A stretch of DNA of 62,537 nt. Source: Candidatus Woesearchaeota archaeon (GTDB lineage Archaea > Nanobdellota > Nanobdellia > Pacearchaeales > GW2011-AR1). The stretch spans positions 8,828 to 71,364 of the forward strand of contig CAZGQV010000001.1 in assembly GCA_964527365.1 (NCBI GenBank), in the 5' to 3' direction. Positions 16,671 to 62,537 of the stretch are shown here, piece by piece. Below the pieces are notes generated by a model that saw nothing but the letters and a program-made list of their open reading frames with translations, was not told the DNA's origin and made no database searches. A program made the translations under genes and the position numbers. The number at the start of each line of letters is the position of its first letter. Positions within the stretch are counted from its first letter, which is position 1.

Positions 16671-16715
16671 AACACTTCTCAAAAGATTTATTAAATAGAT
16701 TTCATTATTTTTATC

Positions 16716-16886: not shown

Positions 16887-16887
16887 A

Positions 16888-18535: not shown

Positions 18536-18543
18536 GTTAAAAA

Positions 18544-20153: not shown

Positions 20154-20205
20154 AGTAAGTTTTATAAACTGTTTTAACTATATTTGAGTGTAATTAGAGG
20201 CTAAA

Positions 20206-20643: not shown

Positions 20644-20689
20644 TTAATTTTTTAGAAATAGTTTTAAAGTTTTTTTTCTTATAATTATT

Positions 20690-20866: not shown

Positions 20867-20968
20867 ATTTCTTTTTCATGCGACATATTAATTTGCAATA
20901 CATCGGAACAAAAGTTTAAAAAAAGAATTGATTGTTAGTTTTATAAATTCTCTTTTCTATTTTATTTT

Positions 20969-21820
20969 ATGTTAAGTTTTGAGGTGATTTTTTTATTTGT
21001 TTTGGGATTAGTTTGGATTCTCTTTGCAGTGTTTGAAGATTTGAAAACAAGAGAGATTGCAAATTGGTTAAATTTCAGTTTGATAATTTTTGCTCTGGGA
21101 TTTAGATTTTTTTTCTCTTTATTTGAAGGGGGAGATTTTCAATTTTTTTATCAAGGGATTATTGGATTTGGAATATTTTTTGTATTGAGTAATTTGTTTT
21201 ATTATGGAAAGATGTTTGCAGGAGGAGATTCAAAACTTATGATGGCTCTTGGAGCAATTTTACCTTTTTCTACAAGTTTTCTATTTAATATGAAAATATT
21301 TCTTCTATTCTTATTCCTATTTTTAATTGTGGGGGCAATTTATGGAATTTTGATTAGTTTTTCTTTAGGAATAATTCATTTTTCAAATTTGAAAAGAGAA
21401 TTTAAAATACAGTTAAAGAAAAATAAAAATATCTTATACTTTCTGCTTTCACTTGCAATTATTTTCTTAATTATTGGGTTTTTTACAAAAATTTCTTTTT
21501 ATTTTGGATTGATTTTATTTTTTATTGCTTATTATTATATTTATGTTAAATCTATTGATGAATCTTGTATGGTGAGGAAAGTAAAATCTTCTAAATTGAC
21601 TTTGGGTGATTGGTTATACAAAGATGAACGTGTTGGAAAGAAAATTGTTAAAGCTACTTGGGATGGTCTTGGAGAAAAAGAAATTAAATTATTACAAAAC
21701 AAAAAATTTGTAATGTTAAAGTTTGGGATACAATTTGCTCCAGTGTTTTTGATTAGTTTTATTTTACTCTGGTTGATTTTAGAATTCAATTGGTTTGGTT
21801 TTTTAATTGGGCTGTTTTAA
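20969..21820 (+). CDS. Class III (prepilin) signal peptidase, A24 family
   Basis: FEDLKTREIANW and AGGDSKLMMALG aspartyl motifs; multi-TM. Confidence 0.92.
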   Translation: MLSFEVIFLFVLGLVWILFAVFEDLKTREIANWLNFSLIIFALGFRFFFSLFEGGDFQFFYQGIIGFGIFFVLSNLFYYGKMFAGGDSKLMMALGAILPFSTSFLFNMKIFLLFLFLFLIVGAIYGILISFSLGIIHFSNLKREFKIQLKKNKNILYFLLSLAIIFLIIGFFTKISFYFGLILFFIAYYYIYVKSIDESCMVRKVKSSKLTLGDWLYKDERVGKKIVKATWDGLGEKEIKLLQNKKFVMLKFGIQFAPVFLISFILLWLILEFNWFGFLIGLF

Positions 21821-37797: not shown

Positions 37798-37800
37798 CCT

Positions 37801-37854
37801 AAATTTTTATAAACAATAACTTCTTTTTTAGAATATGAAAAAAGAGGTCAAAAT
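37801..37854 (+). repeat. Duplicated promoter and start region, copy 1 (copy 2 at 38863-38916)
   Basis: AAATTTTTATAAA at the same distance from ATG, plus a perfect 31-bp TTTTTTAGAATATGAAAAAAGAGGTCAAAAT at 37824 and 38886. Confidence 0.85.
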
Positions 37855-38848
37855 GATGAAGGGGATTTTTGTTATACTATTTTTCATAATCTTTTTTCTC
37901 GGACTTGTTAATGCGCAAGAGTCTTCTTGTTTTAGTGAAGGCAATTGTGTTTTGTATCTTGAAAAACCAGCAAGTGTAATTGTTCCTGCAGTAAGTTTCG
38001 CGCAACCTTTTTCAATGAGTTTAAATTTTATTGATTCTGAAAAAGTTAAATTAAATTTAAATGGAAAAGATCTTTTTGAAGATACACCTTTTCTAAAAGA
38101 ACAAGAATTTTATACAATCGGTAATGGAAATGTTAAATTAAAAATCGAGAAAATAAATTATTATTCAGAAAATTCTGAATTAAATAATGTAGAACTTGGT
38201 TATGAAATTTTGGCTTTAAATAGAGAATCTTTTTGTTCTAAAGAAGGCAGTTGTGAAGTCTATTTTATGGGAGGAATTTCTGCGTGGATTGACCCGGGAG
38301 TTTTTTATGAGATAAGGGCTTGGGGGCTGATGAATTCTTCTCATGTTGAATTAATGGTTGGGGGAACAACCCTTCTAGAAGATTCGGAAACATTTTTGCT
38401 TGTCGAAAATCAACAAATTACTTTGAAAGATGGATCTTTTTTAATAATTAAAGATATTGATTATGATCTTTTAAAAATTCACAATAGTAAAGTATTGTTT
38501 GATATAATTCCAAATATTGATGCTAATTCTTATTGTTATTCCAAAAAGGAAGATACGAGAGTTGATAATTCTACAAAGATTTGTAGGTTTTATCTTGGAG
38601 GAGGAGATGTAGGGCTGAATCTTAACAATAAGATTTATGAGATTTTTTTAGAGGATCTTTCTGAAAATTCGTTTTCTTTAAACATGAATGGAGAGATTGT
38701 TGAAAGGGGGTCTTTTTTTGAAAATATTTTGGTAACTGGTCCGATCAATTCTAATCAAGGACTTCTTTTTGCAGAAGTTACTTTTGAGTCAAATTTTTTG
38801 AAAAGAACTTTTTATTGGTTTAGATGTGTGTTTTCTAAATCTTGTTAA
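37835..38848 (+). CDS. Secreted hypothetical protein with internal repeats
   Basis: Signal peptide ...FFIIFFLGLVNA; three modules SCFSEGNCVLY / FCSKEGSCEVY / YCYSK..CRFY. Confidence 0.75.
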   Translation: MKKEVKMMKGIFVILFFIIFFLGLVNAQESSCFSEGNCVLYLEKPASVIVPAVSFAQPFSMSLNFIDSEKVKLNLNGKDLFEDTPFLKEQEFYTIGNGNVKLKIEKINYYSENSELNNVELGYEILALNRESFCSKEGSCEVYFMGGISAWIDPGVFYEIRAWGLMNSSHVELMVGGTTLLEDSETFLLVENQQITLKDGSFLIIKDIDYDLLKIHNSKVLFDIIPNIDANSYCYSKKEDTRVDNSTKICRFYLGGGDVGLNLNNKIYEIFLEDLSENSFSLNMNGEIVERGSFFENILVTGPINSNQGLLFAEVTFESNFLKRTFYWFRCVFSKSC

Positions 38849-38896
38849 TTTTAATTTAATGTAAATTTTTATAAAGAATCTTTTATTTTTTAGAAT

Positions 38897-40210
38897 ATGA
38901 AAAAAGAGGTCAAAATTAAAATGAAATCGAAGATTTCTAATCATCCAAATTTTAAAGGAATTCAAATGAAAGGTATCTTTGTAATTATGGATGGGGTGGG
39001 AGATTTAGATAATAAGCAACTTGGGGGTAAAACGCCTTTGGAAGCTGCAAATACTCCCAATTTAGATTTTTTGGCAACTCGGGGGGAGATGGGTTATATG
39101 TATCCGATTAAGCCCGGTTATTCTCCAGGTTCAGATGAAGCCATTGTAACCTTTTTTAGGAATGAATTATCCGATTCTACTAGGGGGAGGCTCGAAGCAG
39201 CAGGAGCTGGTTTGAAATTGAATAAGGGTGATTTAGCATTAAGAGTTAATTTTGGAACAATTGGTAGTTTAGAAAAAGGAAACGTTGTAGGTCGCCGAGC
39301 TGGTAGAACTTTAAGCAATAAAGAAGCAAGGAAATTGGCAGAATCAATCAATAAAATAGAATTTTCCTATAAATTTGAATTTGTTCCGACAGTTCAACAT
39401 CGGGCAGTATTAGTTATTCGTGGAAATTTTTCAGATAAAATTGCGGGAGACGATATAACTTATCAAAAAGGGATTTCAAAAAAAATCGAAAAAATTGTTC
39501 CTTGTCAGCCTTTAGTTAAAACAGAAAATGCTAAGCATACTGCAAATGTTTTGAATGAATTTTTAATTTTAGCTTATGATGTTTTAAGAAATCATGCAGT
39601 AAATATTGAAAGAAAAAATAGGGGACTTTTGCCTGCAAATTATTTATTGGTTCGAAATCCTGGGGTGGAAAAACCCAAATTAAAACAATATAAAAATTGG
39701 ATTTCAACTCATTCAATGCCTTTGGAAGTTGGATTTTCAGAATTGAGTGGAATGAATAATTTTTCTTTCACGTATCCTTCTTTGAAAGGGCTTGATGCAT
39801 ACAAAAATTTATGGGATGGATTAAAAAAATCAGTTAGGCATTCAATCAAGGTTCTTAAAAAGAATTTTAATAAATCAGAATATTGTTATATTCATTTTAA
39901 AGAAACGGATCTTCCTGGACATGATAATAAGCCTCTAGAAAAGAAGGCAATGATAGAATATTTGGATAAAACTTTTTTTAAATTTTTAGTTAGGAGTTGT
40001 CCTCAAAGAAAAATTAAAATTTTAATAACGGGAGATCATTCAACTCCTTGCAAACTCAAAAATCATTCTGCTGATCCTGTGCCTGTTTTATTATATAATG
40101 GAAAACTTCCCCAAGAAAGAAAATATTTTAATGAACATGGGGCTCGTAAGGGGAGTCTCAAAAGAATTTTAGGGAAGGATTTATTGAAGAAGGTTGGTTT
40201 TGTTAAATAA
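38897..40210 (+). CDS. apgM: Cofactor-independent phosphoglycerate mutase, archaeal type
   Basis: VIMDGVGD, TPLEAANTPNLD, PGSD, ETDLPGHD, TGDHSTPC, HSADPVP; start may be 38966 (MKGIFVI). Confidence 0.95.
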   Translation: MKKEVKIKMKSKISNHPNFKGIQMKGIFVIMDGVGDLDNKQLGGKTPLEAANTPNLDFLATRGEMGYMYPIKPGYSPGSDEAIVTFFRNELSDSTRGRLEAAGAGLKLNKGDLALRVNFGTIGSLEKGNVVGRRAGRTLSNKEARKLAESINKIEFSYKFEFVPTVQHRAVLVIRGNFSDKIAGDDITYQKGISKKIEKIVPCQPLVKTENAKHTANVLNEFLILAYDVLRNHAVNIERKNRGLLPANYLLVRNPGVEKPKLKQYKNWISTHSMPLEVGFSELSGMNNFSFTYPSLKGLDAYKNLWDGLKKSVRHSIKVLKKNFNKSEYCYIHFKETDLPGHDNKPLEKKAMIEYLDKTFFKFLVRSCPQRKIKILITGDHSTPCKLKNHSADPVPVLLYNGKLPQERKYFNEHGARKGSLKRILGKDLLKKVGFVK

Positions 40211-42698: not shown

Positions 42699-43001
42699 AT
42701 GGGTTCAATAATGGGAATAAAGACTACAAGGGATGACAAGGTTACAATCGAAGTTCAATTAGATTATGAAGAATCTTTAAAATTAAAGGGACATATAAAA
42801 AATATTCATCTTTTTTCAGAAGATTCTGCGGAGATAAAGGCAAATTTATCCCAAAGAGGAACAAATGAAGCAACAAAATATTTTTTAATTCCCAGGGAAC
42901 TTCGAGAAAATTTAACTTTTAATGAAAAAGTTAAATGTCAGAGGATTGATACTGAAAATAGGATAATTTTTATATATATGGTTGATAAAATTAAATTATG
43001 A
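42699..43001 (+). CDS. Hypothetical protein, paralog of 42253 gene; AbrB-like motif
   Basis: MGSIMGIKT..KLKGHIKNIHLFS..QRGTNEATKYFLIPRELR. Confidence 0.78.
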   Translation: MGSIMGIKTTRDDKVTIEVQLDYEESLKLKGHIKNIHLFSEDSAEIKANLSQRGTNEATKYFLIPRELRENLTFNEKVKCQRIDTENRIIFIYMVDKIKL

Positions 43002-43035
43002 ATATGGAATCTTATCTTACTGGGGAAAAATTGAA

Positions 43036-43731
43036 ATGAAAAGAAAAAATATAGGAATATTGGAAATTGACGAAATGATTGAAGGAGGTTTACCTCAAGG
43101 TAGCGTTGTTGGAATTTCTGGTTCTCCAGGGGTTGGAAAATCTATTTTTGCTTTGCATTTTTTACTTGGGGGGGCAAGAAATGGGGAAAAATCAGTATAT
43201 ATTAATTTAGAAGAACCTAGAAGAAATATAGATAATATGATTAAAGGGTTTGATTTTTCTAAAGAATTTTTTGAATATGAAAAAAAAGGATTAATTATAA
43301 TTAAATGTTTTAATTATTCAGAATATGAAAAGATTAGTTTTGATCTTTTGGAAAAAGTAAAAGAAGATGATAAAATAGAAAGATTAGTTATCGATAGTTT
43401 TAATTGTTTTTTTGATTCTTTGGAAAAAAATTGTGGAGAGGGAGATTATTTGGGTGCTCGAAGAATGATAAATTCTTCTTTTTCTTATTTCAGAAAAGAG
43501 AGTTTGAATACATTGTTAATTTTAGAAAAACATGAAAATACTTTGATAAATTTAGATTATAATATCCCTTACTTGGTTGATGGAATCATTAAATTAGATT
43601 ATTTAGATTTGGGAGTTATTGAAAGGAGAATTATTATTCCCAAAATGAGGTGGACAAATCAGCATAAAGAAAGTAAATTTTATGAAATCAATTCAGAAGG
43701 AATAAAAATTTTGAGTGAAAATCAAATTTAA
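43036..43731 (+). CDS. KaiC-like RecA-superfamily ATPase (single domain)
   Basis: GILEIDEMIEGGLP, GSPGVGKS, YINLEE, RLVIDS, LVDGIIKL, IPKMR; start reset to MKRKNIG. Confidence 0.9.
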   Translation: MKRKNIGILEIDEMIEGGLPQGSVVGISGSPGVGKSIFALHFLLGGARNGEKSVYINLEEPRRNIDNMIKGFDFSKEFFEYEKKGLIIIKCFNYSEYEKISFDLLEKVKEDDKIERLVIDSFNCFFDSLEKNCGEGDYLGARRMINSSFSYFRKESLNTLLILEKHENTLINLDYNIPYLVDGIIKLDYLDLGVIERRIIIPKMRWTNQHKESKFYEINSEGIKILSENQI

Positions 43732-47230: not shown

Positions 47231-47509
47231 ATGAAAAGAATAAAGTTTAAAAAAGGAGAGCAGAGAAAATTTTTAAAAAAAGTTTTGGAAGAACTTAATT
47301 GTCCTTCTTTACGAGCATTAAATCAATTTGGATTTGATATTCCTTATTCGACTTTGAAGAATTATTTTATTGAATTAAGGGTTATGCCAAAGAATTTTTT
47401 TGATGATTTATGTTATTTATCTAAAGTAGATGAGAGAGATTTTGAATTTGAAGTGTTGGATGAAAATTGGGGACAAGTTCTTGGGGGATCAACGAAAAAG
47501 GTTAAATAG
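47231..47509 (+). CDS. Hypothetical protein resembling the N-terminal region of DPANN LAGLIDADG-associated proteins; no nuclease domain
   Basis: RIKFKKGEQRKFL...YSTLKNY...NWGQVLGG (family resemblance from memory). Confidence 0.55.
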   Translation: MKRIKFKKGEQRKFLKKVLEELNCPSLRALNQFGFDIPYSTLKNYFIELRVMPKNFFDDLCYLSKVDERDFEFEVLDENWGQVLGGSTKKVK

Positions 47510-47529: not shown

Positions 47530-47745
47530 ATGGCTAAGAAAAGGGGTTTTAGGAATAGGATTTTATTATTTGCAGTTTATGTCATATTTGCCATTTATTT
47601 TATTAATCTCCAAATATCTTTCTTGATTGTTCCAGAATTTGTTTTAAAATTTAATAATTTGATTTTTTTTGTTGGGGGTTTATTGTTGCTTTTTGCTGCA
47701 TTTAAACAATTAATGAAAACTTCTAGACGAGATTCAATCCTTTAG
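47530..47745 (+). CDS. Small two-TM membrane protein
   Basis: Basic N-terminus and two hydrophobic helices. Confidence 0.7.
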   Translation: MAKKRGFRNRILLFAVYVIFAIYFINLQISFLIVPEFVLKFNNLIFFVGGLLLLFAAFKQLMKTSRRDSIL

Positions 47746-47786: not shown

Positions 47787-49625
47787 ATGTTTAAGGGGTG
47801 TGAAAATAAGAGGGGACAAGTGACTATTTTTATAATAATAGCTTTGGTTATTGTTGTTTTAGTTGGAGGTTATTTTGTTTTTAAGGATACGCTTCGAAAA
47901 CAAGTTATTCCAGAAAATATTTCTCCAATTCAATCAAGTTTTTTATCTTGTTTAGAAGAGGCAACATATACGGGAATTTCTTTAGTTGAAAGTACGGGCG
48001 GATATATTGATCTTCCAGATTTTAAACCAGGTTCTCGTTATCAACCATTTTCATCTCAATTAACTTTTGCAGGAATTGAAATTCCTTACTGGTATTATGT
48101 TTCTGGTTCTAATATTCCTAGAGAAAATGTCCCTTCTAAAAAAATGATTGAAGGAGAAATTGCAAAATTTGTTGAGGAAAGAATAATTTCTTGTAATTTG
48201 AATGATTATGTAGATCAAGGTTTTCAAATTTTTAGGGGGGAACCTAAAGCAGAAGTTATTATTAAAGATGAAACAGTAACGGTGAATTTAGAAATGGATT
48301 TATCTATGGAAAGAGATCTTGATACTTTCTTAATTAATGAACATGTAATTGAAGTTAAATCTCAATTGGGTGAACTTTATGGGGCTGCCATGGCTGTTTA
48401 TGAAGAAGAACAAAATAGTTTGTTTTTAGAAAATTATTCTGTTGATGTTTTGCGACTTTATGCTCCAGTTGATGGGGTTGAATTAACCTGTTCTCCATTA
48501 ACCTGGGGAGCAGAACAAGTTTTTCAAGAAATAAGGGAAGCTTTAGAAGTGAATATTTTATCTTTAAAGAATATTGGTGGTAAAAAAGATTATTTTTTAG
48601 TTGAAAATTTACCTACTAATGTTAAAGTTAATTTTGTGACTTCACAAACTTGGCCAAATTATTTGGAAGTGAATCCCACTGAGGGAAGTTTATTGATTTC
48701 TAAACCTGTGGGGAATCAAAATGGGTTGGGTATTTTAGGATTTTGTTATGTCCCCTACCATTATGTTTACAATGTTCGTTATCCCGTTTTAGCTCAAGTC
48801 TCAAAAGGAGATGAAGTATTCCAATTTCCAATGAGTGTGGCAATTGAAGGAAATGTTCCAAGAAAAGCAAAAGAAGGTGTTTCTATTGCTCCCGAAATTA
48901 TTGATTTATGTTCGGATAAAAACACTTTAATTACTGTTAATGTTTTTGATACAAATCTTGAGTCCATTGATGCAGAAATTTCTTATGAATGTTTTGGATC
49001 TACTTGTGAAATTGGAAAGACTGTTAATGGTGAATTGAAAGACCTTTTACCCCAATGTGCTAACGGTGATTTAATTATCAAATCGGAAGGTTATCGTGAT
49101 TTGAGGCTTATGTATTCTAGTGTTAATCCTGGAAGCAGCGTTGCTGTTTTATATCGGGAATACGAAAAAGAAATTTCATTAACTTTGGAAAATCAACCTT
49201 TTTCTAAAAAAGTAATAATTAGTTTTATTGGGGAGGAAGATACTCAAACTCTTATTTATCCGGAAAACAATAAAGTGAAGTTGAGTGAAGGAAATTATGA
49301 GATTCAAATTACAATTTATGGGGAATCAAGTATTAGTTTTGGTGAGACTGTTCAAGAACAATGTGTGACTATTCCAAGCACAGGTGTTGGAAGTTTGATT
49401 GGACTTGAAAAAACAGAATGTTTTGATATTGTATTTCCTGAACAAGATATTAGTGATGTTTTAATTGGGGGAGGAACTATTGATTATTTCTTTTTAGATT
49501 CAGAATTGGATGGGGAGGGAAGGATTTTAATTAATTCCCCTGGACTAAATATTCCAAAAACATTAGAAGAATTACAACAAAACTATTTACTCTTTGAAGT
49601 GAGTGAATTGGAGGTGAATTTATGA
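47787..49625 (+). CDS. Large pilin-like surface protein with class III signal peptide
   Basis: NKRG/QVTIFIIIALVIV; scattered Cys; overlaps next start (ATGA). Confidence 0.82.
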   Translation: MFKGCENKRGQVTIFIIIALVIVVLVGGYFVFKDTLRKQVIPENISPIQSSFLSCLEEATYTGISLVESTGGYIDLPDFKPGSRYQPFSSQLTFAGIEIPYWYYVSGSNIPRENVPSKKMIEGEIAKFVEERIISCNLNDYVDQGFQIFRGEPKAEVIIKDETVTVNLEMDLSMERDLDTFLINEHVIEVKSQLGELYGAAMAVYEEEQNSLFLENYSVDVLRLYAPVDGVELTCSPLTWGAEQVFQEIREALEVNILSLKNIGGKKDYFLVENLPTNVKVNFVTSQTWPNYLEVNPTEGSLLISKPVGNQNGLGILGFCYVPYHYVYNVRYPVLAQVSKGDEVFQFPMSVAIEGNVPRKAKEGVSIAPEIIDLCSDKNTLITVNVFDTNLESIDAEISYECFGSTCEIGKTVNGELKDLLPQCANGDLIIKSEGYRDLRLMYSSVNPGSSVAVLYREYEKEISLTLENQPFSKKVIISFIGEEDTQTLIYPENNKVKLSEGNYEIQITIYGESSISFGETVQEQCVTIPSTGVGSLIGLEKTECFDIVFPEQDISDVLIGGGTIDYFFLDSELDGEGRILINSPGLNIPKTLEELQQNYLLFEVSELEVNL

Positions 49626-52600
49626 GATTAAATAATAAATTTCTTTTTGGAATTTTATTAGTTTTTATTTTATTAATTGGACTTGGTTCAGCGTATATGA
49701 GTTCGGATTCTAAATTTATTGAATCTAGAACCGGGGTTTTTCAAATGGATGAATTAATGTCTTTTAATACAGATATGTGTCAGGAAGGAACAGATTTTGT
49801 TGTTCAAATTCCTCTTTTGGGTTGTACGCCAGCAGTAGTTAGAAGTGATTTACTTGAAGAACAGGATGTGCCAGTATTTTGCGAATTGAGTGCAATTAAA
49901 ATTAATCCTTTGGTAAATATTGAAGCAATAGATTCTATTAATTTTGCTGGAAGCATATATCCTCCCGAAGTTAGAACAATTGGTTTTCATCCTAGTTATT
50001 CTGCACTTGGAGAAAATAGAAAATTGAATAACATGATGTGGGATAATATTGGTTATGCAGTTATTTGGTTAAGGCAACAAAAAAATGAATCCGCTTTAAT
50101 AAATTGTAAGAAGGAAGGATTAAGTGAAATTTGCCGAGTTAATGGAACTTTAAGTGCAAAAATTAGGTACGATTTGGAAGGAGCTTTTGGTTTGAGACGT
50201 CATTCATTTTATCTTCCTGCAATGAGTGATTCTGAATTTAGTTCTCGATATGGACAATATGCTTTTTTTGATAGAAAAGGGTTTTTGAGAGCAGAAAATG
50301 TAGATAACACTGGTGCTTCAATTGTAATATATTCTGGAAGAAATGAAAATCTTGTTGGAATGAGTTCTTCAGGACAAAATGATAAACAAAAAGTTGCTCA
50401 ATTAAATTTGGATGTTGGGGAAACTTCAGGGGATATGTTTTTACCAGGGTTTGATTGTTTAGCAACGGTTAAATTTCGTTTAGATGGAATTGAATCTCCT
50501 GATGCGAGAGCAAAATTACTTATTAATTCTGAATCAATTGAATTAAAGAAAGGAGAAACTTTTTTAGAAAATAAATGTAAAGTTGTTGATCTTGAAAAAA
50601 TTGGTTTGAATCAAGTTGTTAAATTAAATTGTAATGACGATGAAAGAATGGGAACTTTTTCTTTAAGAATTACACCCAGTATTAATTTGAGCGTTAATGG
50701 AGTTTCTAAAAATTATAAAGTTGGAGAGAAAATTTTTAATACAACTGAGGGAAAATATGTCTATTTAGCTTACGTTTCCACCAAAAGTGTGGATGGTTTT
50801 GAAACAGGAAATCCATTGGATCTTGGAGCTTATCTTATTGCTATTCCTAAAAATGTTCCTGTTTTGGGAGATTCTGAATTAAGCCAAGCAGCTAATTTGT
50901 TTGATAGTTTGACTTTAGAAGAAGGAAATTTTGAAGATATTGCGAGTCTTTTTTCTGGAACAATTTCAAATTTTTGGTATTGGATGCAAGCTGGATCAAA
51001 TTTTAAGTATGTTCATTTTAATAAGGGAATAAAATTTGATGATAAGGAAATAGAAATTTTAGGTTTTGGAGAGGCAGGAAATGTCTTTTTAGAAGAGGTG
51101 TCTTCTGAGTATTATACTTCTGCATTGAGTGAGTATGATCTTGTTTCAAATAGTTTTTCTAATGAGAAATATGATGATAAAACTTACCAAGCAGAGATTA
51201 GTTTGGGTGAAAGGTCTTTATATGGGAAAATTAATTTGGCAAATGCATTACATCAAAAAAGTGATGTAAGGATTTTTTGCGAAGAATTTATGGGTTCTTA
51301 TTCTGAGACTAAACTTGATTTATCAATTTGCGAGGATTTAGAAAAGATGGCGAATACAGATATTTCTACAAAAGATGTTTTAATTGATGGGAATTGGAAG
51401 AGGATTTCTTTCGAAAGAATTTATGAACCTTCTTATGAAGATTATGGGATTGAAATTAATGTTCGGAGTAAAGACGGAGCCACAAATGAAGATTATAAAA
51501 TGAAAAAAGATTCTACAATTCTTTTGACAGATTTTATTAAAGAAAATCATGTTTTTATGGTTGAGTCTTCTTTGGAAGTTAATGTATTACATATAAAATA
51601 TTCTAATGGTGGGTGGATTTGGACACCAGATAATCAAAATTGGATGAGTGTATCAAAATTAATTATTTCTGTAGGAGAATCATCTGGTAAGTCGCTTTCG
51701 GCAAAAAATCAGGAATTGTTTACTTCAATAAAAGATACTGATTTTAAAACTGGAAGTAAAATTCTTTTAAGGGCACAAGGGACATTGGATTCAATAAAAT
51801 TAGTTGAAGTTCATGAGGATGAAGCAGTTCTTGAATTTAATTTATATAATAAATCAAAAATTCAAACCACATATGATTTTTTAGGAAGCAAAAAAAATGT
51901 TCTGGAAAAAGGAGTTCAAGTAAGTTTTGGAAGTGATTATATTTTTACTTTAAAGAAAGCTAATATCGAACAATTAGCCAAGGTTTCAGTTATTCCAAAT
52001 ATTAATTATGCTGGGAGTGAAGTTAATTTTTCTTTTAATATTGGTGTTGAAAAAAGAGCTATTCAGTTATCTCCAGAAAAAGCACAAAATAGGGTTGATA
52101 AATTAAATAAAACAATTGAAGATTGGAGAAAGAGGTCAGAGTCTTTAGGTGATGTTGTTCAAACAATGAAAACTGCTTGTTTGGGAGTTGGTGCTGCTTT
52201 AACTGTTAAGAATTTAATTGGGGGAGCTGGGGGAAAAACAATTGCCCGAGAAGATGTGATGTATGGTTCTGGAGGTTGGTATGAAGAATGCGCGGACAAG
52301 AAAATTGGCGATGTAACTTATAGTAGTGAAGAAGATTGTCTTTTCAAAAATGCAGATAAAATTGATGCAGAGGTTAATCAAATAACTGCTGCAATTAATA
52401 AACAAAATAGTGAAATTAAACAAATACAATCTCCTTATACTGAAGAAAAATTGTTAGGCCAAAATGTTGTAGATACTGCAAAATTTATTGGAGATTATTC
52501 TATAAAAGTTAATGAAAGTTTGAATTGGATTAAAGGGGCAGATGTATATGAAGGGGAGAAAGAAATAAAAACTTTAGATAATGTTCAAAAAGTTTTAGAT

Positions 52601-55600
52601 GGGGAGAACTGGGAAAGTGGAATTTATAGTGTAGAACAAGCAAAAAAAATTGAATTATATTCTGAGTTATTAAAGGAAGATCCAGAAAATGAGGCATATA
52701 AACAGAGGTTACTGAAAGCGTTAACAGATGTTGGAGTAAATAGTGAGAAACATTTGGCTTTGCAAAATTTGCAGAATAATGTTGTTAATTCTGGTTTAGA
52801 AAAAAGTATTGTTAGAATTTATTCTGGTGAAGGTGCAAAAACAGAAATTTATGATGGAGATGTGGTTCCAGCAACAGATTTTGGTTTAATGCCCGTGGGT
52901 AAACCGATACAATCAATTTATGTTGATGGTTCACTTCATTATGTTATTTTAAATGTAACAAAAGAGAACAAATATTTTATCTGGAAAGTATATAATGAAA
53001 GTAAGTTGGAGGTTTCAAAAGGTAAATCAGATATAATTAAAAGTAAATATGATTATTTTCAAAAATATGATTCTAAAAGTTATCACAATGCTTATGCAAA
53101 GGATGCAGAACCAAAAGTGAAATATTATGAAAATGATCCTTACAAAGGACTTCCAGCTTTGGTGCCTTTTGACCGAATAAATGGATGGTATGTTTACATT
53201 AAACAAACAATTCCAACTGGAAGTACAATTAGAGCATATGATGATTCTGGAAAAGTAAATAGTTTTTGGTTATGTAATGTTGGACAAAATGGATTAGAAC
53301 AATTTGATAATAATTTGGGAGATGATATTTGTCAAATGATTAATCTTGGAACTGGTCAACCGTATAATCAATTTCCTGGTTTGAAAACTTCTGAGGCTAA
53401 AGAATTGGTTGATGATGCACAAAAAGCAATTTATGAATCATCTAGACTGTATGGCGAGGGAGTTAAGAAAGCAACAATTTTAAATGAACAATTTGAAGTT
53501 GGTAGTCCAGCACTTGATATTCCTGGAATTAAATGTACTGATTATATGTCTCCTAAAGATTGTAAACTTTTATTCAATGTTTGTGATCCTGTTATTTGTC
53601 CAAATAGTCGATGTGATTTTGGTGGAGCATATCCTGTTCCCGACGTGATTCAATCTGGAATTATTGGAAGTATAGCTTTATGTTTACCAAATTTTAATGA
53701 AGGTATTTATGTCCCAGTTTGTTTGACTGGTGTTAAAGCTGGAATTGATGGTTATTTATCTATTGCTCAAGCTTATCAAGATTGTTTGGTTCATAATTTG
53801 GAAACTGGCGAAACTATTGGGGTGTGTGATGAGATTCATAGTATTTATTTATGTGAATTTTTCTGGAGACAAGCTTTTCCTTTGGCTAAACTTGCTATTC
53901 CAAAATTAATGGGGATTTTAACTGGACAAAATAGCCGGGGAGGGGGAGAATATATGGGCATAGAAGCAGCTTGGGAAAATGCTAAAAATTCTATTAGTTA
54001 TTTTACACAATTTTATGCTACAAATTCTTACAAAGCGTTTAAAGCAAGGAGTACTGAAGAGATTGGAAGTGCTGCTTGTGGAAGTTTTGTTTCTGTCGCT
54101 TACCCTAATGGCCAGGGAGTTTTGGATGTTTTAACAGAATCTGATAGCCCCCCACAATTTAATGCAAAATTTGATGCAATTCCCTTTACAACAACGACGG
54201 TTCCTCCAATTAATCAGTATAAGGTCTTTTATCATATTTACGCTGGTAATGACCGTGGAGCTTATTTTAAAGTATATTTGAGGGGGGATCCTGGAGGATC
54301 TTATTTTCAAGGAACTGGTTTTGGAAAAAGTGTTGCTTCAGGTTATATTGCTAAGGGAGAATATGCAAGTGAAACGGTTGATTTTACTGCTCCAGAAGGA
54401 TATAGAGAATTATGTGTTGTTGTGAATGATCAGGAAGAATGTGGTTTTGCCCAAGTAACTAGTAATTTTGCACTTGATTATATTAAGGATCAATATATTA
54501 AGAATCAGGCAACAAATGAGGATATTAAAACTGAAGAAGAATGTATTTCTGGAACTCCAAATGTTTATAGTTTATTGAACCCCAATATCCAAGAGGGGGT
54601 TGATAGTTTAATTGATCCTGCAATTTATGAAAAGGGGATAATTCGAATTTGTGCAACGGATAGTCCTGGAAGTGGGAGTGATGTTTTTGATGGAAAAGAA
54701 GGCAGCCGATGGGAAGAAGTAGGTTATTGTGGAAATGAAAAAATGAGGTGTTGGATTGATACAGAAAGTATTAAGGACGCTGTTGAATTTGAAACAACTT
54801 ATAATCAATCTATTACAGAATTAGAAGGAGATGTTAGTGAGTTTTTGAAAGATAATAATTATATGACTCCTGAAAATTTTTCTTTGTTTTTAGAAAAGTT
54901 AAAAGCGGAAAAGGATGCAACAAAAAATATTGAATCTATTAATGGAATTTTTGAAAAAATATTCATGAATAATCAAAATGGTTATTTGCATTATTTGCTT
55001 GGGGGATTTTATGGGGAACTTGCTAATATTTTACATAGTAAAAAAGTAGTAGATTCTAAAATGTCTCCTTCAAATCTTAGAGAAAAAATTATTGAATATG
55101 CAGAATTAAAAGTTGGAAAAGATTGTGGTGAAGATTGTTATGCTTCTGTTAAGGCAATTTATGATGAATTGGGAATTAATGCCCAATGTGTTTATTCAAT
55201 TTCTTCCTCTACTGAGTTAAGTCAACCTCTTTGTTCAAAATGTGGTTGTGATAAAAATGAGGATGGGAATTGTGTGAATTGTCCCCGTGAACAATATGAA
55301 TTAAAGTCGGCCGATTTAATTCAAGTTTATAATGCTAATGAAGTTTCATCCACGGGCGGACATAATTTTATTTTTGAAAGTTGGAAAGATTCAAAAAATT
55401 ATATCGCAAATATTTTTAGCCAAAATTATGATACTCGACTTCTTGAAAAAAAAGAATATGAAATTTCTCCAATTTATCGTCCTGTAACTGTTATTTGGGA
55501 ACCAGAACTTAAAGGTTATGGGGAAAGTTGTAATGAAGGTGTTGAAGGAACGTGTTTGAGTACTATCTTAGATAAAGATGGATGTACAACTAAATTTGAA

Positions 55601-58600
55601 CCTAAATTTTGTGAAGGTCCAACTCATGTTCAATGTTGTTTGGCTGAGGAAAAAGATGAATTTTCTGATTTTGAAAAATCTTTAGATTTAGTGAATCCAA
55701 TTTTGGAATTAGATAATGTCTGTTACAATTTTTTAGGGGGAGATTGGAAATGGACAAAAGAATGTGATCTTGCTAGAGAAGGATATAAATCAATTGGGTA
55801 TGTGGGGGGAGTTAATATTGTCCAAGCTAAATGGTTAGACACAAATGTTTTTAAAAATCCTTATGGTTCTGATCCTACTGTGAATTCAAAGGAAATTATT
55901 TTATTATTGGAGAGTAAGAAATCTTTTGATGAAGGATTGGATTTATTGATTAATCGTGCAGTGGATTCAAGAAAAGTTTTGAGTACTTCCTTTGTTGAAA
56001 TGAATAGAAATAAAATATTTGAATTGACTGGATTTAAAGATGTTGAAATAGTATATTTTTATTATCAAAATGATGCATGGTATTGGAGTCCAGACAAATT
56101 AGATTCAACAGAGGGTGGTTGGATATTAATTAATGAAGCGGGTGTTCGGGGTGGAAAAATTTCTACAAATATTTTAGGATCAATTGTGAATTTTGCTTCT
56201 TTTGATTTTTTTCCAGACATAGATGTAACAACCTTGCTTTTAGGTGAGGAAGATTTTATTGAATTATTTGAGAAGAAGGATTTTAAGGAAGGTTCAAAAT
56301 TACTTTTTTTTGTAAATATGGATAATTTAGAAGATGTTATTTATGGGTTGGGGAGAAATGTTGTTCCCAAACAAGACGTGGTTGTGGGGGAATTGATTAC
56401 TTTGGAGGAAGCAATGAAGAAAATACTTTTGCTGGAAGGAGATTATTCTGACAATAAAAATAAATTGTTAATTGATAATATGTATAAATCTGGAATTTTG
56501 AGTGAGGAAGAATATTGTGATGTGGCTGGGAAAGATATCAATTCTAAGAGTGCTTGGAGCAATACGTGGAATGTTGAAGAGGATATGGATTATGTTAAGG
56601 AAATTTTAATTCAAAAGAGTTTAGAAAAATATAATCAAAAGTGGATTGTATCTGCCATTTTATTGAAGTTAAATTTAATTGAAAAAGGAAATTATTTTGA
56701 TAACAATGTTTTGATAAATGTTTGGAAAGATCAAGGGCTTTTAGAAGAAGAAGAATATGCTAAGATTAAGGAGAACCCCTCTGATGATAGGATTGTTTAC
56801 AATTTGATAAAATATTTTGAGGGAAGAAAAGATTTGACTTATCCAGCGGTTTCAGGAGAAAGTTGTGTTATTAATCCTTCGAAGAGAAATATTAAAACAA
56901 CAATTAATTATTTAGAATCTCAGGAAGTAGATGTTTCTATTGTTGATAAGGAAGTTGAACAAATTTATCAGAGAGAAATTACTAGAGAAGAAGGATATAA
57001 TCCTCAAGAAAGTACTATTTCAAAAATTGAGAGGTTGGAAGAGGAAAGGGTTGATTTAACATCAATTGAAAATAAAATAGATTCAATTATTGTTGCAGAA
57101 CGTATTTGTATACAAGAGAATGTTTTTGAAGAAGAAACAGTTCCAGAAGAAACAATCTTAGAAGAAATTACTATTTCTGATAAAGTAAAAATTTTACAAA
57201 ATTATTATCAAAATTCTTTGAAATTATCTGGGAAATATTCTGAAGGAGCAATAATGGATTTTGTTGAAGATTTAAAATCCGAGAGAATATTATATCCTGT
57301 TGAATATGATGATATTAGGGGGGTGATTACTAGAAATGAAGATATGAATTATGTTCAAAGGCTTTTGGCAGCTAAATTAGCAAAGATAAAAGCTGTTTCA
57401 ACTTATGGGAAAAGAACTTTATCTATTTCAGAAAGAGATTCAATTTTTGATAATTGGATTCCTTCTCAAGATTATTTAGGATCAGTTCCCCCAGCAAAAT
57501 GTGATATGTGTAAATCTGGAACATTTGATTCATGTAGTCTTGAAGAATGTTATGCCATTTCAGTTTTTGGGGGATTAGATTGTGCTTTTTACGAGGGATA
57601 TTTTTCTAATTCTTGTGAAAAACAAAATTATTTTTTTGGTGATTTAATTGTAATTGAACAGGAAGAAGTTTTGGTAGAAGAGGAAGAAGAAATAATTCAA
57701 GTTGGAATTGCTAAAGTTTATCAAAATGAATTAAATATTTTTCAATCTTTTGTTGATTCAAATGGGTTTAATTTTGAAGAAGAATTTGACAATGTTGTGA
57801 TAAAATCAAATCATTTTGATAAATATACAATTAATAATAAAAATTTTGTTGATTTATCTGGGCTTTCGGAATTAACCTTTTTAGAAGAATTAAATTTACA
57901 AAATAATAAAATTATGAATCTTTCACCCTTAAGAAACTTAAATAATTTAATTTATTTGAATGTTGAGAAAAATTGTTTACAAGATGAAAATGAACTTAAC
58001 TTTTATTCTCAAAAACTTAAAGAGAGTTTTCTTTATGGTCAGAATCCTAGGTCTGATTGTGAGGAGGAAATAGAAGTTTGTGAAATTATTCCCTCCTTAT
58101 ATGAAATAATTGAAGATGATGGTCTTAGTTGGAATGAAAAAGTTGCAGATTCTACAAATTATTTTTTAGGTAAACCCGTTCCTAATGCTAACAAGGATAA
58201 TTGTTTTACTTCTGCAAATGCTATTTATTTTGCAGTAGGTTTTGGAACAACCTGTAAATATTCTGACCTTGTTGGAAAAAATTATCAAATTAGATCTAAC
58301 ACAATAATTACTAAATCGTCTGGAATATTTGTAGTAAATCCTTCTGCATGTTCAAAAGCGGGAGGGAAAATTGATTTAAGTCAAGAAGAAAAATTAAATT
58401 TATTGAAACAAGGAGACATGGTAGATTTAGTATATGGCGGGCATTTACAACACACAGTTATTTTTAATGGTTGGGAAAATAAGGGAAATTATGATGCAAA
58501 TTTGGTTGATTGGAATGGAGGTTCTTCTGGAAACAAAATATATAGGGAATTTAGCGCAAATTTAGCAGATGATGAAACTCCAGTATATCTTATTCGTGGA

Positions 58601-58621
58601 CCTTCTCCTTTGAGTTCCTAA
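49622..58621 (+). CDS. Giant (2999 aa) secreted surface protein; Cys-rich core, two papain-like domains, LRRs
   Basis: Signal peptide; uninterrupted ORF; C..H motifs at codons 1839/1914 and 2861/2944; LRR at about 57850-57980. Confidence 0.85.
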   Translation: MRLNNKFLFGILLVFILLIGLGSAYMSSDSKFIESRTGVFQMDELMSFNTDMCQEGTDFVVQIPLLGCTPAVVRSDLLEEQDVPVFCELSAIKINPLVNIEAIDSINFAGSIYPPEVRTIGFHPSYSALGENRKLNNMMWDNIGYAVIWLRQQKNESALINCKKEGLSEICRVNGTLSAKIRYDLEGAFGLRRHSFYLPAMSDSEFSSRYGQYAFFDRKGFLRAENVDNTGASIVIYSGRNENLVGMSSSGQNDKQKVAQLNLDVGETSGDMFLPGFDCLATVKFRLDGIESPDARAKLLINSESIELKKGETFLENKCKVVDLEKIGLNQVVKLNCNDDERMGTFSLRITPSINLSVNGVSKNYKVGEKIFNTTEGKYVYLAYVSTKSVDGFETGNPLDLGAYLIAIPKNVPVLGDSELSQAANLFDSLTLEEGNFEDIASLFSGTISNFWYWMQAGSNFKYVHFNKGIKFDDKEIEILGFGEAGNVFLEEVSSEYYTSALSEYDLVSNSFSNEKYDDKTYQAEISLGERSLYGKINLANALHQKSDVRIFCEEFMGSYSETKLDLSICEDLEKMANTDISTKDVLIDGNWKRISFERIYEPSYEDYGIEINVRSKDGATNEDYKMKKDSTILLTDFIKENHVFMVESSLEVNVLHIKYSNGGWIWTPDNQNWMSVSKLIISVGESSGKSLSAKNQELFTSIKDTDFKTGSKILLRAQGTLDSIKLVEVHEDEAVLEFNLYNKSKIQTTYDFLGSKKNVLEKGVQVSFGSDYIFTLKKANIEQLAKVSVIPNINYAGSEVNFSFNIGVEKRAIQLSPEKAQNRVDKLNKTIEDWRKRSESLGDVVQTMKTACLGVGAALTVKNLIGGAGGKTIAREDVMYGSGGWYEECADKKIGDVTYSSEEDCLFKNADKIDAEVNQITAAINKQNSEIKQIQSPYTEEKLLGQNVVDTAKFIGDYSIKVNESLNWIKGADVYEGEKEIKTLDNVQKVLDGENWESGIYSVEQAKKIELYSELLKEDPENEAYKQRLLKALTDVGVNSEKHLALQNLQNNVVNSGLEKSIVRIYSGEGAKTEIYDGDVVPATDFGLMPVGKPIQSIYVDGSLHYVILNVTKENKYFIWKVYNESKLEVSKGKSDIIKSKYDYFQKYDSKSYHNAYAKDAEPKVKYYENDPYKGLPALVPFDRINGWYVYIKQTIPTGSTIRAYDDSGKVNSFWLCNVGQNGLEQFDNNLGDDICQMINLGTGQPYNQFPGLKTSEAKELVDDAQKAIYESSRLYGEGVKKATILNEQFEVGSPALDIPGIKCTDYMSPKDCKLLFNVCDPVICPNSRCDFGGAYPVPDVIQSGIIGSIALCLPNFNEGIYVPVCLTGVKAGIDGYLSIAQAYQDCLVHNLETGETIGVCDEIHSIYLCEFFWRQAFPLAKLAIPKLMGILTGQNSRGGGEYMGIEAAWENAKNSISYFTQFYATNSYKAFKARSTEEIGSAACGSFVSVAYPNGQGVLDVLTESDSPPQFNAKFDAIPFTTTTVPPINQYKVFYHIYAGNDRGAYFKVYLRGDPGGSYFQGTGFGKSVASGYIAKGEYASETVDFTAPEGYRELCVVVNDQEECGFAQVTSNFALDYIKDQYIKNQATNEDIKTEEECISGTPNVYSLLNPNIQEGVDSLIDPAIYEKGIIRICATDSPGSGSDVFDGKEGSRWEEVGYCGNEKMRCWIDTESIKDAVEFETTYNQSITELEGDVSEFLKDNNYMTPENFSLFLEKLKAEKDATKNIESINGIFEKIFMNNQNGYLHYLLGGFYGELANILHSKKVVDSKMSPSNLREKIIEYAELKVGKDCGEDCYASVKAIYDELGINAQCVYSISSSTELSQPLCSKCGCDKNEDGNCVNCPREQYELKSADLIQVYNANEVSSTGGHNFIFESWKDSKNYIANIFSQNYDTRLLEKKEYEISPIYRPVTVIWEPELKGYGESCNEGVEGTCLSTILDKDGCTTKFEPKFCEGPTHVQCCLAEEKDEFSDFEKSLDLVNPILELDNVCYNFLGGDWKWTKECDLAREGYKSIGYVGGVNIVQAKWLDTNVFKNPYGSDPTVNSKEIILLLESKKSFDEGLDLLINRAVDSRKVLSTSFVEMNRNKIFELTGFKDVEIVYFYYQNDAWYWSPDKLDSTEGGWILINEAGVRGGKISTNILGSIVNFASFDFFPDIDVTTLLLGEEDFIELFEKKDFKEGSKLLFFVNMDNLEDVIYGLGRNVVPKQDVVVGELITLEEAMKKILLLEGDYSDNKNKLLIDNMYKSGILSEEEYCDVAGKDINSKSAWSNTWNVEEDMDYVKEILIQKSLEKYNQKWIVSAILLKLNLIEKGNYFDNNVLINVWKDQGLLEEEEYAKIKENPSDDRIVYNLIKYFEGRKDLTYPAVSGESCVINPSKRNIKTTINYLESQEVDVSIVDKEVEQIYQREITREEGYNPQESTISKIERLEEERVDLTSIENKIDSIIVAERICIQENVFEEETVPEETILEEITISDKVKILQNYYQNSLKLSGKYSEGAIMDFVEDLKSERILYPVEYDDIRGVITRNEDMNYVQRLLAAKLAKIKAVSTYGKRTLSISERDSIFDNWIPSQDYLGSVPPAKCDMCKSGTFDSCSLEECYAISVFGGLDCAFYEGYFSNSCEKQNYFFGDLIVIEQEEVLVEEEEEIIQVGIAKVYQNELNIFQSFVDSNGFNFEEEFDNVVIKSNHFDKYTINNKNFVDLSGLSELTFLEELNLQNNKIMNLSPLRNLNNLIYLNVEKNCLQDENELNFYSQKLKESFLYGQNPRSDCEEEIEVCEIIPSLYEIIEDDGLSWNEKVADSTNYFLGKPVPNANKDNCFTSANAIYFAVGFGTTCKYSDLVGKNYQIRSNTIITKSSGIFVVNPSACSKAGGKIDLSQEEKLNLLKQGDMVDLVYGGHLQHTVIFNGWENKGNYDANLVDWNGGSSGNKIYREFSANLADDETPVYLIRGPSPLSS

Positions 58622-58748: not shown

Positions 58749-58832
58749 TGCAAGGGACAGGATTTGAACCTGCGTAAGCATTACACTACTGGAGCCTAAA
58801 TCCAGCCCGTTTGACCACTCCGGCACCCCTGC
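58749..58832 (-). tRNA. tRNA-Leu (TAG)
   Basis: Acceptor GCAGGGG/CCCTTGC, anticodon arm CTGGA-TTTAGGC-TCCAG, long variable arm, GGTTCAAATCC. Confidence 0.96.
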
Positions 58833-58840
58833 ACATATTT

Positions 58841-58931
58841 GTGGTCAAATGGTTTATCGTTAGGTGTGAAGTCAGAGACTTTACGCCTGGCCGAATGCAA
58901 ATGAGAGCCTGACCACTCCGGCACCCCCGCA
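58841..58931 (-). other. Extra copy of the tRNA-Leu 5' end plus structured spacer
   Basis: 58910-58931 matches 58812-58833 at 21/22 nt; spacer has a 12-bp hairpin (58862-58888) and an inverted copy of the D-loop (58841-58852). Confidence 0.75.
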
Positions 58932-61904: not shown

Positions 61905-62537
61905 TTAAAAGTGTTTTCTTTTGATTTTATGAAATATCTTTTTATTGGGATTAATGTTTTTTTTAGTCTTTGATTTTTTCTTAGAAGAGTGTTTTTTCTT
62001 TTTTGGATTTTTTTGTTTTATTAAAGCAATAATTGTAATAATAATAATAATACTAATGATACTTATTTTAATTATGTTCATTGTTTTATTTTCTTCAATT
62101 TTAGCTTTTTTTGCGTTTTCATTTATTTGTTCTAATTCGGTTTCATTAATTTCTGTTTGTCCAATTTCATCCATCCCGTCAACGGAAAAACCACTTATTT
62201 TTTCTTTTGGTGTTTCTAAAGAGAGAATGGTGTAAAATAATTCATCAATTATAAATGTTCCCCCAGTTATTTCTACATTTAATAAATATGTTTGGTTAAA
62301 GTAATTTAAATCTTTTATATTACAAGTTTCGGTACATTTTGATTCAAAGTTTATTGTATTTTCTATGATTGTTTCGTTTGTTTCATTAATCACAACTTCT
62401 GTTTCATTTTCTTCTATTGTTTCTTCTACTATTATTTCTTCTTCCTCTTCTGTCACAACTTCTGTTTCGTTTGTTTCATTAATCACAACTTCTGTTTCGT
62501 TTGTTTCATTAATCACAACTTCTGTTTCGTTTGTTTC
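61905..62537 (-). CDS. C-terminal part of a membrane-anchored surface protein (open at window end)
   Basis: Acidic NET-repeat stalk, C-terminal TM (ISIISIIIIITIIALI), very basic tail. Confidence 0.75.
   Translation of the reverse strand, partial: ETNETEVVINETNETEVVINETNETEVVTEEEEEIIVEETIEENETEVVINETNETIIENTINFESKCTETCNIKDLNYFNQTYLLNVEITGGTFIIDELFYTILSLETPKEKISGFSVDGMDEIGQTEINETELEQINENAKKAKIEENKTMNIIKISIISIIIIITIIALIKQKNPKKKKHSSKKKSKTKKNINPNKKIFHKIKRKHF
62453..62537. repeat. 30-bp tandem coding repeat (INETNETEVV)
   Basis: TCACAACTTCTGTTTCGTTTGTTTCATTAA x2.8, plus a further copy near 62371-62406. Confidence 0.92.

Follow-up and report, generated by a model that had tools for sequence, protein, structure and literature searches.

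The 62,537-nucleotide stretch analysed here (the window), from a Candidatus Woesearchaeota archaeon (contig CAZGQV010000001.1), encodes a protein of 2,999 residues (the giant) whose gene overlaps that of a 612-residue protein immediately upstream (the partner). The giant carries two cysteine-histidine modules, d1 and d2, which we conclude from sequence comparison and structure prediction to be divergent members of the NlpC/P60-CHAP superfamily in which an additional insert separates the Cys helix from the G-D strand. Our joint reading, to which we assign a probability of roughly 0.6, is that the pair forms a two-protein surface device, a core feature of DPANN archaea of the Pacearchaeota/Woesearchaeota type, in which the giant would be exported and held by the partner and its Cys-His modules would cut bacterial murein. 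The family and the general hypothesis are already known, since a murein-degrading role has been proposed in print for these giants and for peptidoglycan hydrolases of Nanoarchaeota (PMC8204110, PMC9723730, PMC10936187, PMC12352652). What we regard as useful additions are a division of the giant into a core and a tail of shuffled modules, an unrecognised NlpC/P60 subfamily and a conserved partner gene.

A preliminary description of the window, made from its letters alone, had proposed a giant surface protein with two mutually similar papain-like domains, coupled to a protein with a class III signal. Both open reading frames (ORFs) and their overlap are as it gave them, the start codon of the giant overlapping the stop codon of the partner (ATGA) within ...TTATGAGA..., and all six motifs that it quoted are present at the residues named (Table 1). 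Module d1 contains DCYASVKAIY (from residue 1838), LKSADLIQVY (1894) and GHNFIFESW (1913), with the predicted dyad encoded at nt 55136-55138 (C1839) and 55361-55363 (H1914). The counterparts in d2 are NCFTSANAIY (2860), LKQGDMVDLVY (2928) and QHTVIFNGW (2943), with C2861 at nt 58202-58204 and H2944 at 58451-58453. Pairwise BLASTP aligns d1 and d2 at 24% identity over 133 residues (E = 4e-7), and a hidden Markov model (HMM) iterated from either one recovers the other; judged by these comparisons, the resemblance is homology, above chance.

Conservation of the Cys and His in homologues, which the preliminary description had made a test of its proposal, is complete in an alignment of 40 module copies: C27 and H110 occur in 40/40, F114, W117 and A125 are likewise invariant, and Y35, C44, Y46, C76 and G97 (39/40) are nearly so. 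Position 98, next to this glycine, is Asp in 26 of the 40 copies and Tyr in 12. Module d1 represents a subtype in which a beta-hairpin insert is replaced by a CxxCxC...CxxC cluster (CSKCGCDKNEDGNCVNC, residues 1871-1887, nt 55232-55282); the cluster is kept in homologues P0006, P0031 and P0019 and may bind a metal or form a disulfide knot. Separately, homologue P0114 has a module copy (residues 2066-2227) that lacks both the Cys (DKF for NCF/W) and the His (NN for HN), probably a pseudo-enzyme variant to judge from its sequence.

To model the fold, we ran AlphaFold2 (AF2) on d2 (residues 2835-2999) with the 40-copy alignment. The resulting model has a predicted local distance difference test score (pLDDT) of 95.1 and a predicted template modelling score (pTM) of 0.90, and in it a helix (27-37) starts at the Cys while the His lies on a long strand (108-119) that follows the G-D strand. 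Foldseek searches of the PDB with this model return first the CHAP lysins Ly7917 (5d74), PlyPy (5udn) and LysK CHAPK (4csh), and later the phi812 hub CHAP domain (9eum), Tse1, Gsp amidase and the C39 domain of PCAT1. Among the predicted viral structures of BFVD the best match has E 3.6e-4, TM 0.55 and probability 1.0, and the list after it consists mostly of phage lysins, CHAP, peptidase C51, NlpC/P60 and TIGR02594 proteins. According to the model, the module has a papain-like alpha+beta fold, the match being one of fold only.

Sequence profiles supply a second, transitive line of evidence. The module profile matched 281 cluster representatives among 1.84 billion proteins. Some of the short matches are fragments of giants (P0241, for instance, clusters with the 2,314-residue P0372), and beyond giants and fragments the profile finds short proteins with tandem compact modules, at E down to about 1e-17, whose motif reads CWDY..VY..AG ... 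GDWL.Y.N....EHSGIFV.WVD. Two of these, P0306 (E about 1e-17 with the module profile) and P0321 (6e-12), also pass the gathering score of NLPC_P60 (29.8 and 24.7 against 23), the match in P0306 spanning the Cys to just beyond the His. P0306 (GCA_002754915.1; L003 2163-3146) is a bacterial protein of 327 residues with two tandem compact Cys-His modules, and its neighbours, DctP, MacB/FtsX and OmpR-type genes, form a bacterial gene context. Aligned to E. coli MepS with hhalign, the module profile covers only the GD...H half, on GDLV...RHVGIY (14% probability), and the bacterial intermediates place their Cys and His on C68 and H119 (12%). The direct Pfam matches of the 40 modules are weak, comprising NLPC_P60 in two (best E 0.012), Amidase_6 in two and CHAP in one, and PHROGs returned nothing for the 40. 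As an observation apart, the short tandem-module proteins (P0309, P0317, P0321 and others) make up an uncharacterised family of which only P0306 is placed in a bacterial context; they may mark a bacterial source of the archaeal module.

We assign the modules to the papain-like NlpC/P60-CHAP type, as the preliminary description had anticipated, because the invariant Cys is predicted to start a helix, the His to lie on the strand after G-D, the Foldseek matches are lysins and the bacterial intermediates link the module to NLPC_P60. With MepS, LysK CHAPK, Ly7917, PlyPy and Tse1 the module shares the order Cys ... G-D strand ... His. It differs from such enzymes in a Cys-His spacing of 83 residues, compared with 51 in MepS, an insert that the bacterial intermediates lack; in additional conserved cysteines (C44, C76) and HN-IF-W and DWNG motifs of its own; and in being embedded in an archaeal protein of 3,000 residues. 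Current HMM libraries miss this divergent NlpC/P60 subfamily, and surveys of archaeal peptidoglycan hydrolases consequently undercount it.

The rest of the giant places these modules in a known family. A search of 5.8 billion proteins yielded 321 homologues, the best 120 of which are all DPANN proteins of 1.7-3.2 thousand residues; where their source names give a taxon, it is Pacearchaeota, Nanoarchaeota or 'archaeon' only. Many are named 'transglycosylase SLT domain-containing protein' (P0007, P0018, P0022 and P0052 among them). Residues 1-1800 are covered by 120/120 of these best homologues at 37-73% identity, and coverage collapses beyond. By sequence, the giant is a member of fam00969, the 'large murein-like lytic transglycosylase proteins' of Pacearchaeota and Woesearchaeota (Castelle et al. 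2021, PMC8204110), mentioned again by Vigneron et al. 2022 (PMC9723730) and in PMC10936187. It resembles the giants of that family in size range, lineage restriction and predicted extracellular location, and differs from them in having no SLT domain and two NlpC/P60-like Cys-His modules instead. In a limited literature search, we found in these three papers a description of the SLT domain only, and none of the shuffled tail, the core/tail split or the partner gene.

The core begins with a Sec-type signal (MRLNNKFLFGILLVFILLIGLGSAY), the sole hydrophobic segment of the giant, which ends in GSAY where the family consensus ends in S-x-S-A-x-Y and is, on this sequence evidence, probably cleaved. 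Curated searches gave nothing significant in Pfam and nothing in NCBIfam for the whole giant, the core included (Pfam also for residues 1-1080 alone), and the core profile found nothing in the PDB. An AF2 model of residues 781-1830 reached a pLDDT of 65.6 and a pTM of 0.42, with no Foldseek match at E < 1e-3; we dismissed as noise its hits to generic beta-sandwiches (ApaG, GH2 Ig-like) and to diphtheria toxin (probability 0.12, root-mean-square deviation >20 Å). The most conserved part, with a per-block consensus of 0.6-0.88 and more than 20 invariant cysteines, is modelled as helices (model residues 531-700) followed by strands (732-833). Within the core lies a copy of what we term the WxW module (GGWIWTPDNQNWMS...), an insert that only about 20-33% of homologues have at this position.

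Beyond the core, C-terminal variation among homologues, which the preliminary description had suggested surveying, proved extensive: tails are variable and their modules shuffled. We counted modules with HMMs iterated on 119 homologue tails, from a best-120 set skewed towards the query. The Cys-His module was counted in 59/119 tails, SLT-type modules in 51, other murein enzymes in 27 and a second NlpC-like module type in 28; at least one hydrolase module is present in 98/119, and 32 of the 59 tails with a Cys-His module carry a murein-specific enzyme beside it. The WxW module, which matches no known family, is found in 86 copies distributed over 59/119 tails. Among 54 giants drawn independently from species-representative genomes, 43 carry a hydrolase module and 13 the Cys-His module. 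Pfam searches of ten homologue tails gave, at or above the curated cut-offs, Amidase_3, SLT, YkuD, VanY, glucosaminidase, DUF1615, DUF2272, Trypsin_2 and TPM, all falling within the variable tail. Every enzyme recognisable in these tails either is specific for murein or, as the Cys-His module does, has its relatives among the wall hydrolases of bacteria and phages. Since only 51 of the 119 tails have an SLT-type module, SLT is not universal in giants of this type; the window giant itself has none, either by Pfam (PF01464) or by HMMs built from the SLT and SLT-like modules of homologues.

Tail modules also appear to be exchanged among giants. A homologue has none, one or two copies of the Cys-His module, at variable positions, and the order of modules varies freely. 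The two homologues nearest to the window giant by core (P0001 and P0002, about 70% identity) have tails unrelated to its own, whereas the closest copies of d1 and d2 occur in P0006 (58% identity) and P0011 (47%), both with more distant cores; this discordance points to module exchange. The window giant reads, in order, signal, core with the inserted WxW copy, first Cys-His module, two WxW modules, a poorly conserved stretch, leucine-rich repeats (LRR) and second Cys-His module. Its LRR stretch has a weak Pfam LRR_4 match at residues 2754-2791 (E 0.0044, below cut-off) and a weak NCBIfam internalin match at 2735-2792, and shares 41% identity with the LRR tail of P0001, for which a PF12799 match is precomputed.

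The partner begins MFKGCENKRG/QVTIFIIIALVIVVLVGG, a class III (prepilin-like) signal KRG/QVTIF with basic residues, Gly at -1 and a following hydrophobic helix, its one hydrophobic segment. The N-terminal consensus NKRGQVTIFIIIAIVIV is strongly conserved in 30 homologues, with Q11, T13 and F15 invariant. Full-length homologues number 1,699, at about 50% identity; no Pfam domain was detected in the partner or in any of them, NCBIfam gave nothing for the partner, and its profile found no match in the PDB. A scan of 185,579 species genomes placed relatives in 415. We retrieved 80 loci, all of which come from metagenome-assembled genomes of Pacearchaeota, Woesearchaeota or Nanoarchaeota. The giant follows the partner wherever the downstream DNA is long enough (scored by downstream ORF or tblastn), and the 4-nt ATGA-type overlap is present in 46 of the 80. 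The giant is translationally coupled to the partner, as had been noticed in the window, and this pairing is conserved across the lineage; the pair is one of few lineage-wide, lineage-specific features that bear on the question of hosts. Export of both proteins fits the presence in each of a single, N-terminal hydrophobic segment.

The surroundings of the pair are conserved as well. Two further genes precede it: one for a protein of 92 residues, which gave no Pfam or NCBIfam match, and one for a small hydrophobic protein of 71 residues, which gave no significant family match. The resulting four-gene block (about 92-96 residues; a membrane protein of 71-72; partner of 612-614; 4-nt overlap into the giant) recurs in two other contigs, L001 and that of P0001, where it likewise adjoins the genes for S3Ae and L44e. 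In L001 the first gene encodes 96 residues, at the same position and with the same KKGEQRKF...LNCPSLRALNQFGF motif, and in the P0001 contig 95; the second encodes 71 and 72 residues, respectively. In the window the locus is surrounded by genes for TFIIB and ribosomal proteins S3Ae, L44e and S8e, and GC content stays at 0.26-0.34 throughout, with no break in composition at the giant gene. We rejected a recent island or provirus, given that the GC content equals that of the flanks and that the locus is syntenic beside S3Ae/L44e in other genomes, and also a diversity-generating retroelement as the source of tail variation, given that neither the giant gene nor its vicinity contains template/variable repeat pairs. 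Downstream genes differ: the giant is followed by tRNA-Leu and TFB in the window, by Na_Ca_ex in the contig of P0001 and, in L001, by DUF7090 on the opposite strand. None of the three has an immunity gene, or any conserved small gene, after the giant. A few kilobases upstream of the locus, at 42982-43731 (+), is a gene for a KaiC/RecA-like ATPase of 249 residues (Pfam ATPase/KaiC, E 1e-36), with no evidence of a relation to it.

The window also contains a type IV pilus-like locus, on which the preliminary description had suggested that the giant might be displayed. It comprises a T2SSE ATPase (762 residues), a 722-residue protein without a Pfam match, a secreted LVIVD-repeat protein (839 residues), seven small ORFs (112-302 residues, 17043-20643), all with class III signal-like N-termini, and a prepilin peptidase of the Peptidase_A24 family. 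The N-terminus of the partner resembles those of the seven small ORFs, and to judge from this signal its processing by the A24 peptidase is plausible. With its 612 residues the partner greatly exceeds a typical major pilin in size, and 26 kb separate it from the pilus locus. The shared need for a prepilin peptidase is all that ties the pair to that locus, and display of the giant on the pilus is speculation.

Taken together, these features suggest the following mechanism. The giant, which consists of a scaffold of about 1,800 residues and a C-terminal tail of interchangeable modules, would be exported through its Sec-type signal. The partner, processed by the A24 peptidase, would hold or present it at the cell surface, a role that we infer because the giant has nothing besides its signal, itself probably cleaved off, to anchor it in a membrane. 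Where the archaeon meets a bacterial cell or the remains of a wall, the WxW and LRR modules would serve for binding, and the Cys-His modules, acting as amidases or endopeptidases, would most likely cut the peptide moiety of bacterial murein, in either the stem or the cross-link. Murein is indicated as the substrate by the fold, by the bacterial relatives and by the companion modules in homologues. A role in cutting walls, as the preliminary description proposed, is plausible, since genuine murein hydrolase domains occupy this part of the tail in homologues; pseudomurein or S-layer as the target is less likely, given murein-specific companions and no PeiW/PeiP-type match. No immunity protein would be needed, because the archaeon has no murein. 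As far as sequence can tell, the device might serve to attach the archaeon to a bacterial host, to prey on bacteria or to feed on the debris of walls.

Several observations weigh against this reading. The window modules fall below every Pfam, NCBIfam and PHROG threshold, PF00877 and PF05257 included; the module profile matched no PDB sequence, and d2 had no tblastn match in 50,697 phage genomes. The Foldseek scores against the PDB are modest (probability up to 0.98, E 0.013, TM 0.47-0.49), as are the hhalign probabilities to MepS (12-14%). None of the candidates for a third polar residue is invariant, position 119 being D/N in 38/40 copies, 129 D in 35/40 and 131 N in 32/40; the corresponding residues are N2953, D2963 and N2965 in d2 and D1923, S1933 and N1935 in d1. 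The activity and the location of family members are predictions. The substrate of the window giant is argued by association with its relatives, because it has no murein-specific glycosidase itself, and the anchoring role of the partner stays pure inference because neither its fold nor that of the core has a known match. To our knowledge no Pacearchaeote or Woesearchaeote has been cultivated, nor are their hosts known, and we know of no bacterial host demonstrated for any Pacearchaeote.

The alternative that survives best, though we think it unlikely, is that the giant works as a bacteriolysin or a feeding enzyme, either released or attached to the surface, which kills competing bacteria or harvests murein fragments and necromass and has no part in attaching to a host or breaching it. 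Archaeal peptidoglycan hydrolases have been shown by experiment to kill bacteria, in a 2025 study that found their homologues especially prominent in Nanoarchaeota (PMC12352652); release would be compatible with the probably cleaved Sec signal and the missing C-terminal anchor, and the locus has neither an immunity gene nor a dedicated delivery system. An invariant scaffold of about 1,800 residues and a strictly co-encoded pilin-like partner nevertheless far exceed what a soluble lysin requires, and it is this scaffold and this obligatory partner that lead us to favour a contact device over a free lysin. The conserved position beside ribosomal protein genes, in minimal genomes, likewise suggests a function central to the lifestyle.

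A second alternative, the version of the preliminary description and in our view improbable, has the modules attack the envelope of an archaeal host, acting either as S-layer proteases or as pseudomurein isopeptidases of the PeiW/PeiP kind. Pseudomurein endoisopeptidases do occur among papain-like and transglutaminase-like Cys-His enzymes, and the lack of a murein-specific glycosidase in the window giant would suit such a target. All cultivated DPANN have archaeal hosts, according to PMC11291902. Against it, Peptidase_C71 and transglutaminase are matched at E <= 1 by 0/40 modules and nowhere in the whole giant; the structural neighbours of the module are murein hydrolases of bacteria and phages; its nearest relatives outside the family are NlpC/P60-type proteins with a bacterial gene context; and in homologues the same tail slot holds SLT, Amidase_3, VanY, YkuD or glucosaminidase, all of which act on bacterial murein.

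There is little to recommend a third, in which the modules would process the giant or other surface proteins much as C39 leader peptidases or the autoprocessing domains of toxins do. Foldseek matches do include the PCAT1 C39 peptidase domain (9azl, 7n87), and the two module copies flank the variable middle of the tail; the C39 matches rank below the CHAP lysins, however, with lower probability, a copy number of 0-2 and a variable position are unsuited to a fixed processing step, and the module is interchangeable with glycosidases and amidases. Catalytically dead domains that recognise wall peptides are very improbable: the third catalytic residue varies (d1 has Ser instead of Asp at position 129) and P0114 has lost both Cys and His, but all 40 aligned copies keep the dyad together with the aromatic, G-D and H-N motifs around it, as one would expect if catalysis were under selection.

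A more ambitious version of the surface-device reading, which we put forward only tentatively, is that the core, the partner and the two small upstream proteins constitute an undescribed archaeal contact apparatus that latches onto bacteria and opens their walls locally, the shuffled tail modules setting which wall chemotypes or hosts can be exploited. If true, genomes would provide direct evidence of episymbiosis or predation across domains, together with a host-range code that can be read. The published idea of a physical interaction between these archaea and bacteria is strengthened by the enzyme inventory of the tails and the missing immunity gene, and the module inventory of each genome makes a testable prediction of the murein bonds, and hence the wall types, that are attacked.

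Comparison with other systems brings out what is particular to the giant. With polymorphic toxins and effectors (Rhs/CDI/LXG and the Tae-Tai amidase pairs of the type VI secretion system) it shares a conserved N-terminal scaffold and exchanged C-terminal enzymes that include murein amidases; archaeal versions of such toxins were surveyed by Makarova et al. 2019, as cited in PMC12352652. It differs in that no immunity gene lies downstream and downstream genes vary by genome, in that the tail holds several modules rather than one toxin tip, and in that its export would be of Sec type, not T5, T6 or T7. The SPEARE proteins of Nanohaloarchaeota (Hamm et al. 2019, PMC6642349) and the Archaeovorins of Omnitrophota (bioRxiv 10.1101/2023.11.21.568195) are likewise giants composed of several domains (protease, adhesion or wall-degrading); they lie mostly outside the cell, belong to ultrasmall symbionts or predators and have been proposed to act in attaching to and breaching a partner cell. 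We found no sign of a sequence relationship: the window giant gave no match to the domains characteristic of SPEARE proteins or Archaeovorins, families not compared with it directly. Nor does it have the transmembrane domain or the cytoplasmic restriction-endonuclease part of the SPEARE proteins. Phage tail-associated lysins, such as the phi812 hub CHAP and phi29 gp13-type proteins, also place a papain-like wall-cutting module at the distal end of a large structural protein, where it serves in local wall breaching, and proteins of this kind are among the Foldseek matches of the module. The giant, in contrast, is encoded by a chromosomal core gene syntenic with ribosomal protein genes, with no phage genes near its locus and no sequence match to phages by PHROGs or tblastn.

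Table 1. Positions of the gene pair, its parts and associated features in the window
Feature	Position (nt)	Strand	Basis
Type IV pilus-like locus	9486-21820	+	T2SSE ATPase, pilin-like ORFs, Peptidase_A24
Prepilin (class III signal) peptidase	20969..21820	+	Pfam Peptidase_A24, E 1.4e-12
Small conserved protein, 92 aa, first gene of conserved four-gene block	47231..47509	+	ORF
Small hydrophobic protein, 71 aa, probably two membrane helices, second gene of block	47530..47745	+	ORF
Partner, 612 aa	47787-49625	+	ORF list
Giant, 2,999 aa	49622-58621	+	ORF list
N-terminal Sec-type signal or anchor	49622..49696	+	Sole hydrophobic segment of giant
Conserved core, aa 1 to ~1800	49622..55021	+	Coverage by 120 best homologues
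WxW module inserted in core, aa ~640-720	51539..51781	+	Motif search
Most conserved part of core, aa ~1290-1720, predicted Cys-rich helical bundle then beta-sandwich	53489..54781	+	Conservation, AF2 model
Cys-His module 1 (d1), aa 1815-1975, predicted dyad C1839/H1914	55064..55546	+	Motifs, BLASTP, HMM
Two tandem WxW modules, aa ~2015-2125 and ~2130-2240, candidate binding modules	55664..56341	+	Iterated HMMs (tail 232-314, 344-429)
Leucine-rich repeat stretch, aa ~2735-2813	57824..58060	+	Weak matches and P0001 similarity
Cys-His module 2 (d2), aa 2835-2999, C-terminus, predicted dyad C2861/H2944	58124..58618	+	Motifs, AF2, Foldseek

Elsewhere in the window we noted four features of separate interest. 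On the minus strand at 58907-58930, about 75 nt upstream of tRNA-Leu (58749-58832, -), lies a 24-nt copy of a tRNA 5' end (GCGGGGGTGCCGGAGTGGTCAGGC) that matches the 5' end of that adjacent tRNA-Leu at 21/24 positions. A recognisable 3' half is present neither after it nor anywhere else in the window, and neither ARAGORN (introns allowed) nor Rfam makes a call; it could be the 5' half of a split tRNA, part of an unusual intron-containing tRNA or a remnant of duplication.

Three tandem paralogous genes, for proteins of 181, 175 and 201 residues, occupy 6541-8321 (+); the DNA of the first two is 79% identical over 272 nt, and a 69-nt block is common to all three (repeat families D1, D3). A 72-nt segment is duplicated at 37783-37854 and 38845-38916 with 86% identity, spanning the upstream region and the first 20 nt (ATGAAAAAAGAGGTCAAAAT) of consecutive genes for proteins of 337 and 437 residues, which are probably paralogues with a shared promoter and leader. 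Finally, a 30-nt tandem repeat at 62352-62537 lies in a coding region (ORF 61905-62516, -) that extends to the end of the window; on the coding strand the repeat would specify a repetitive, acidic, low-complexity protein segment.

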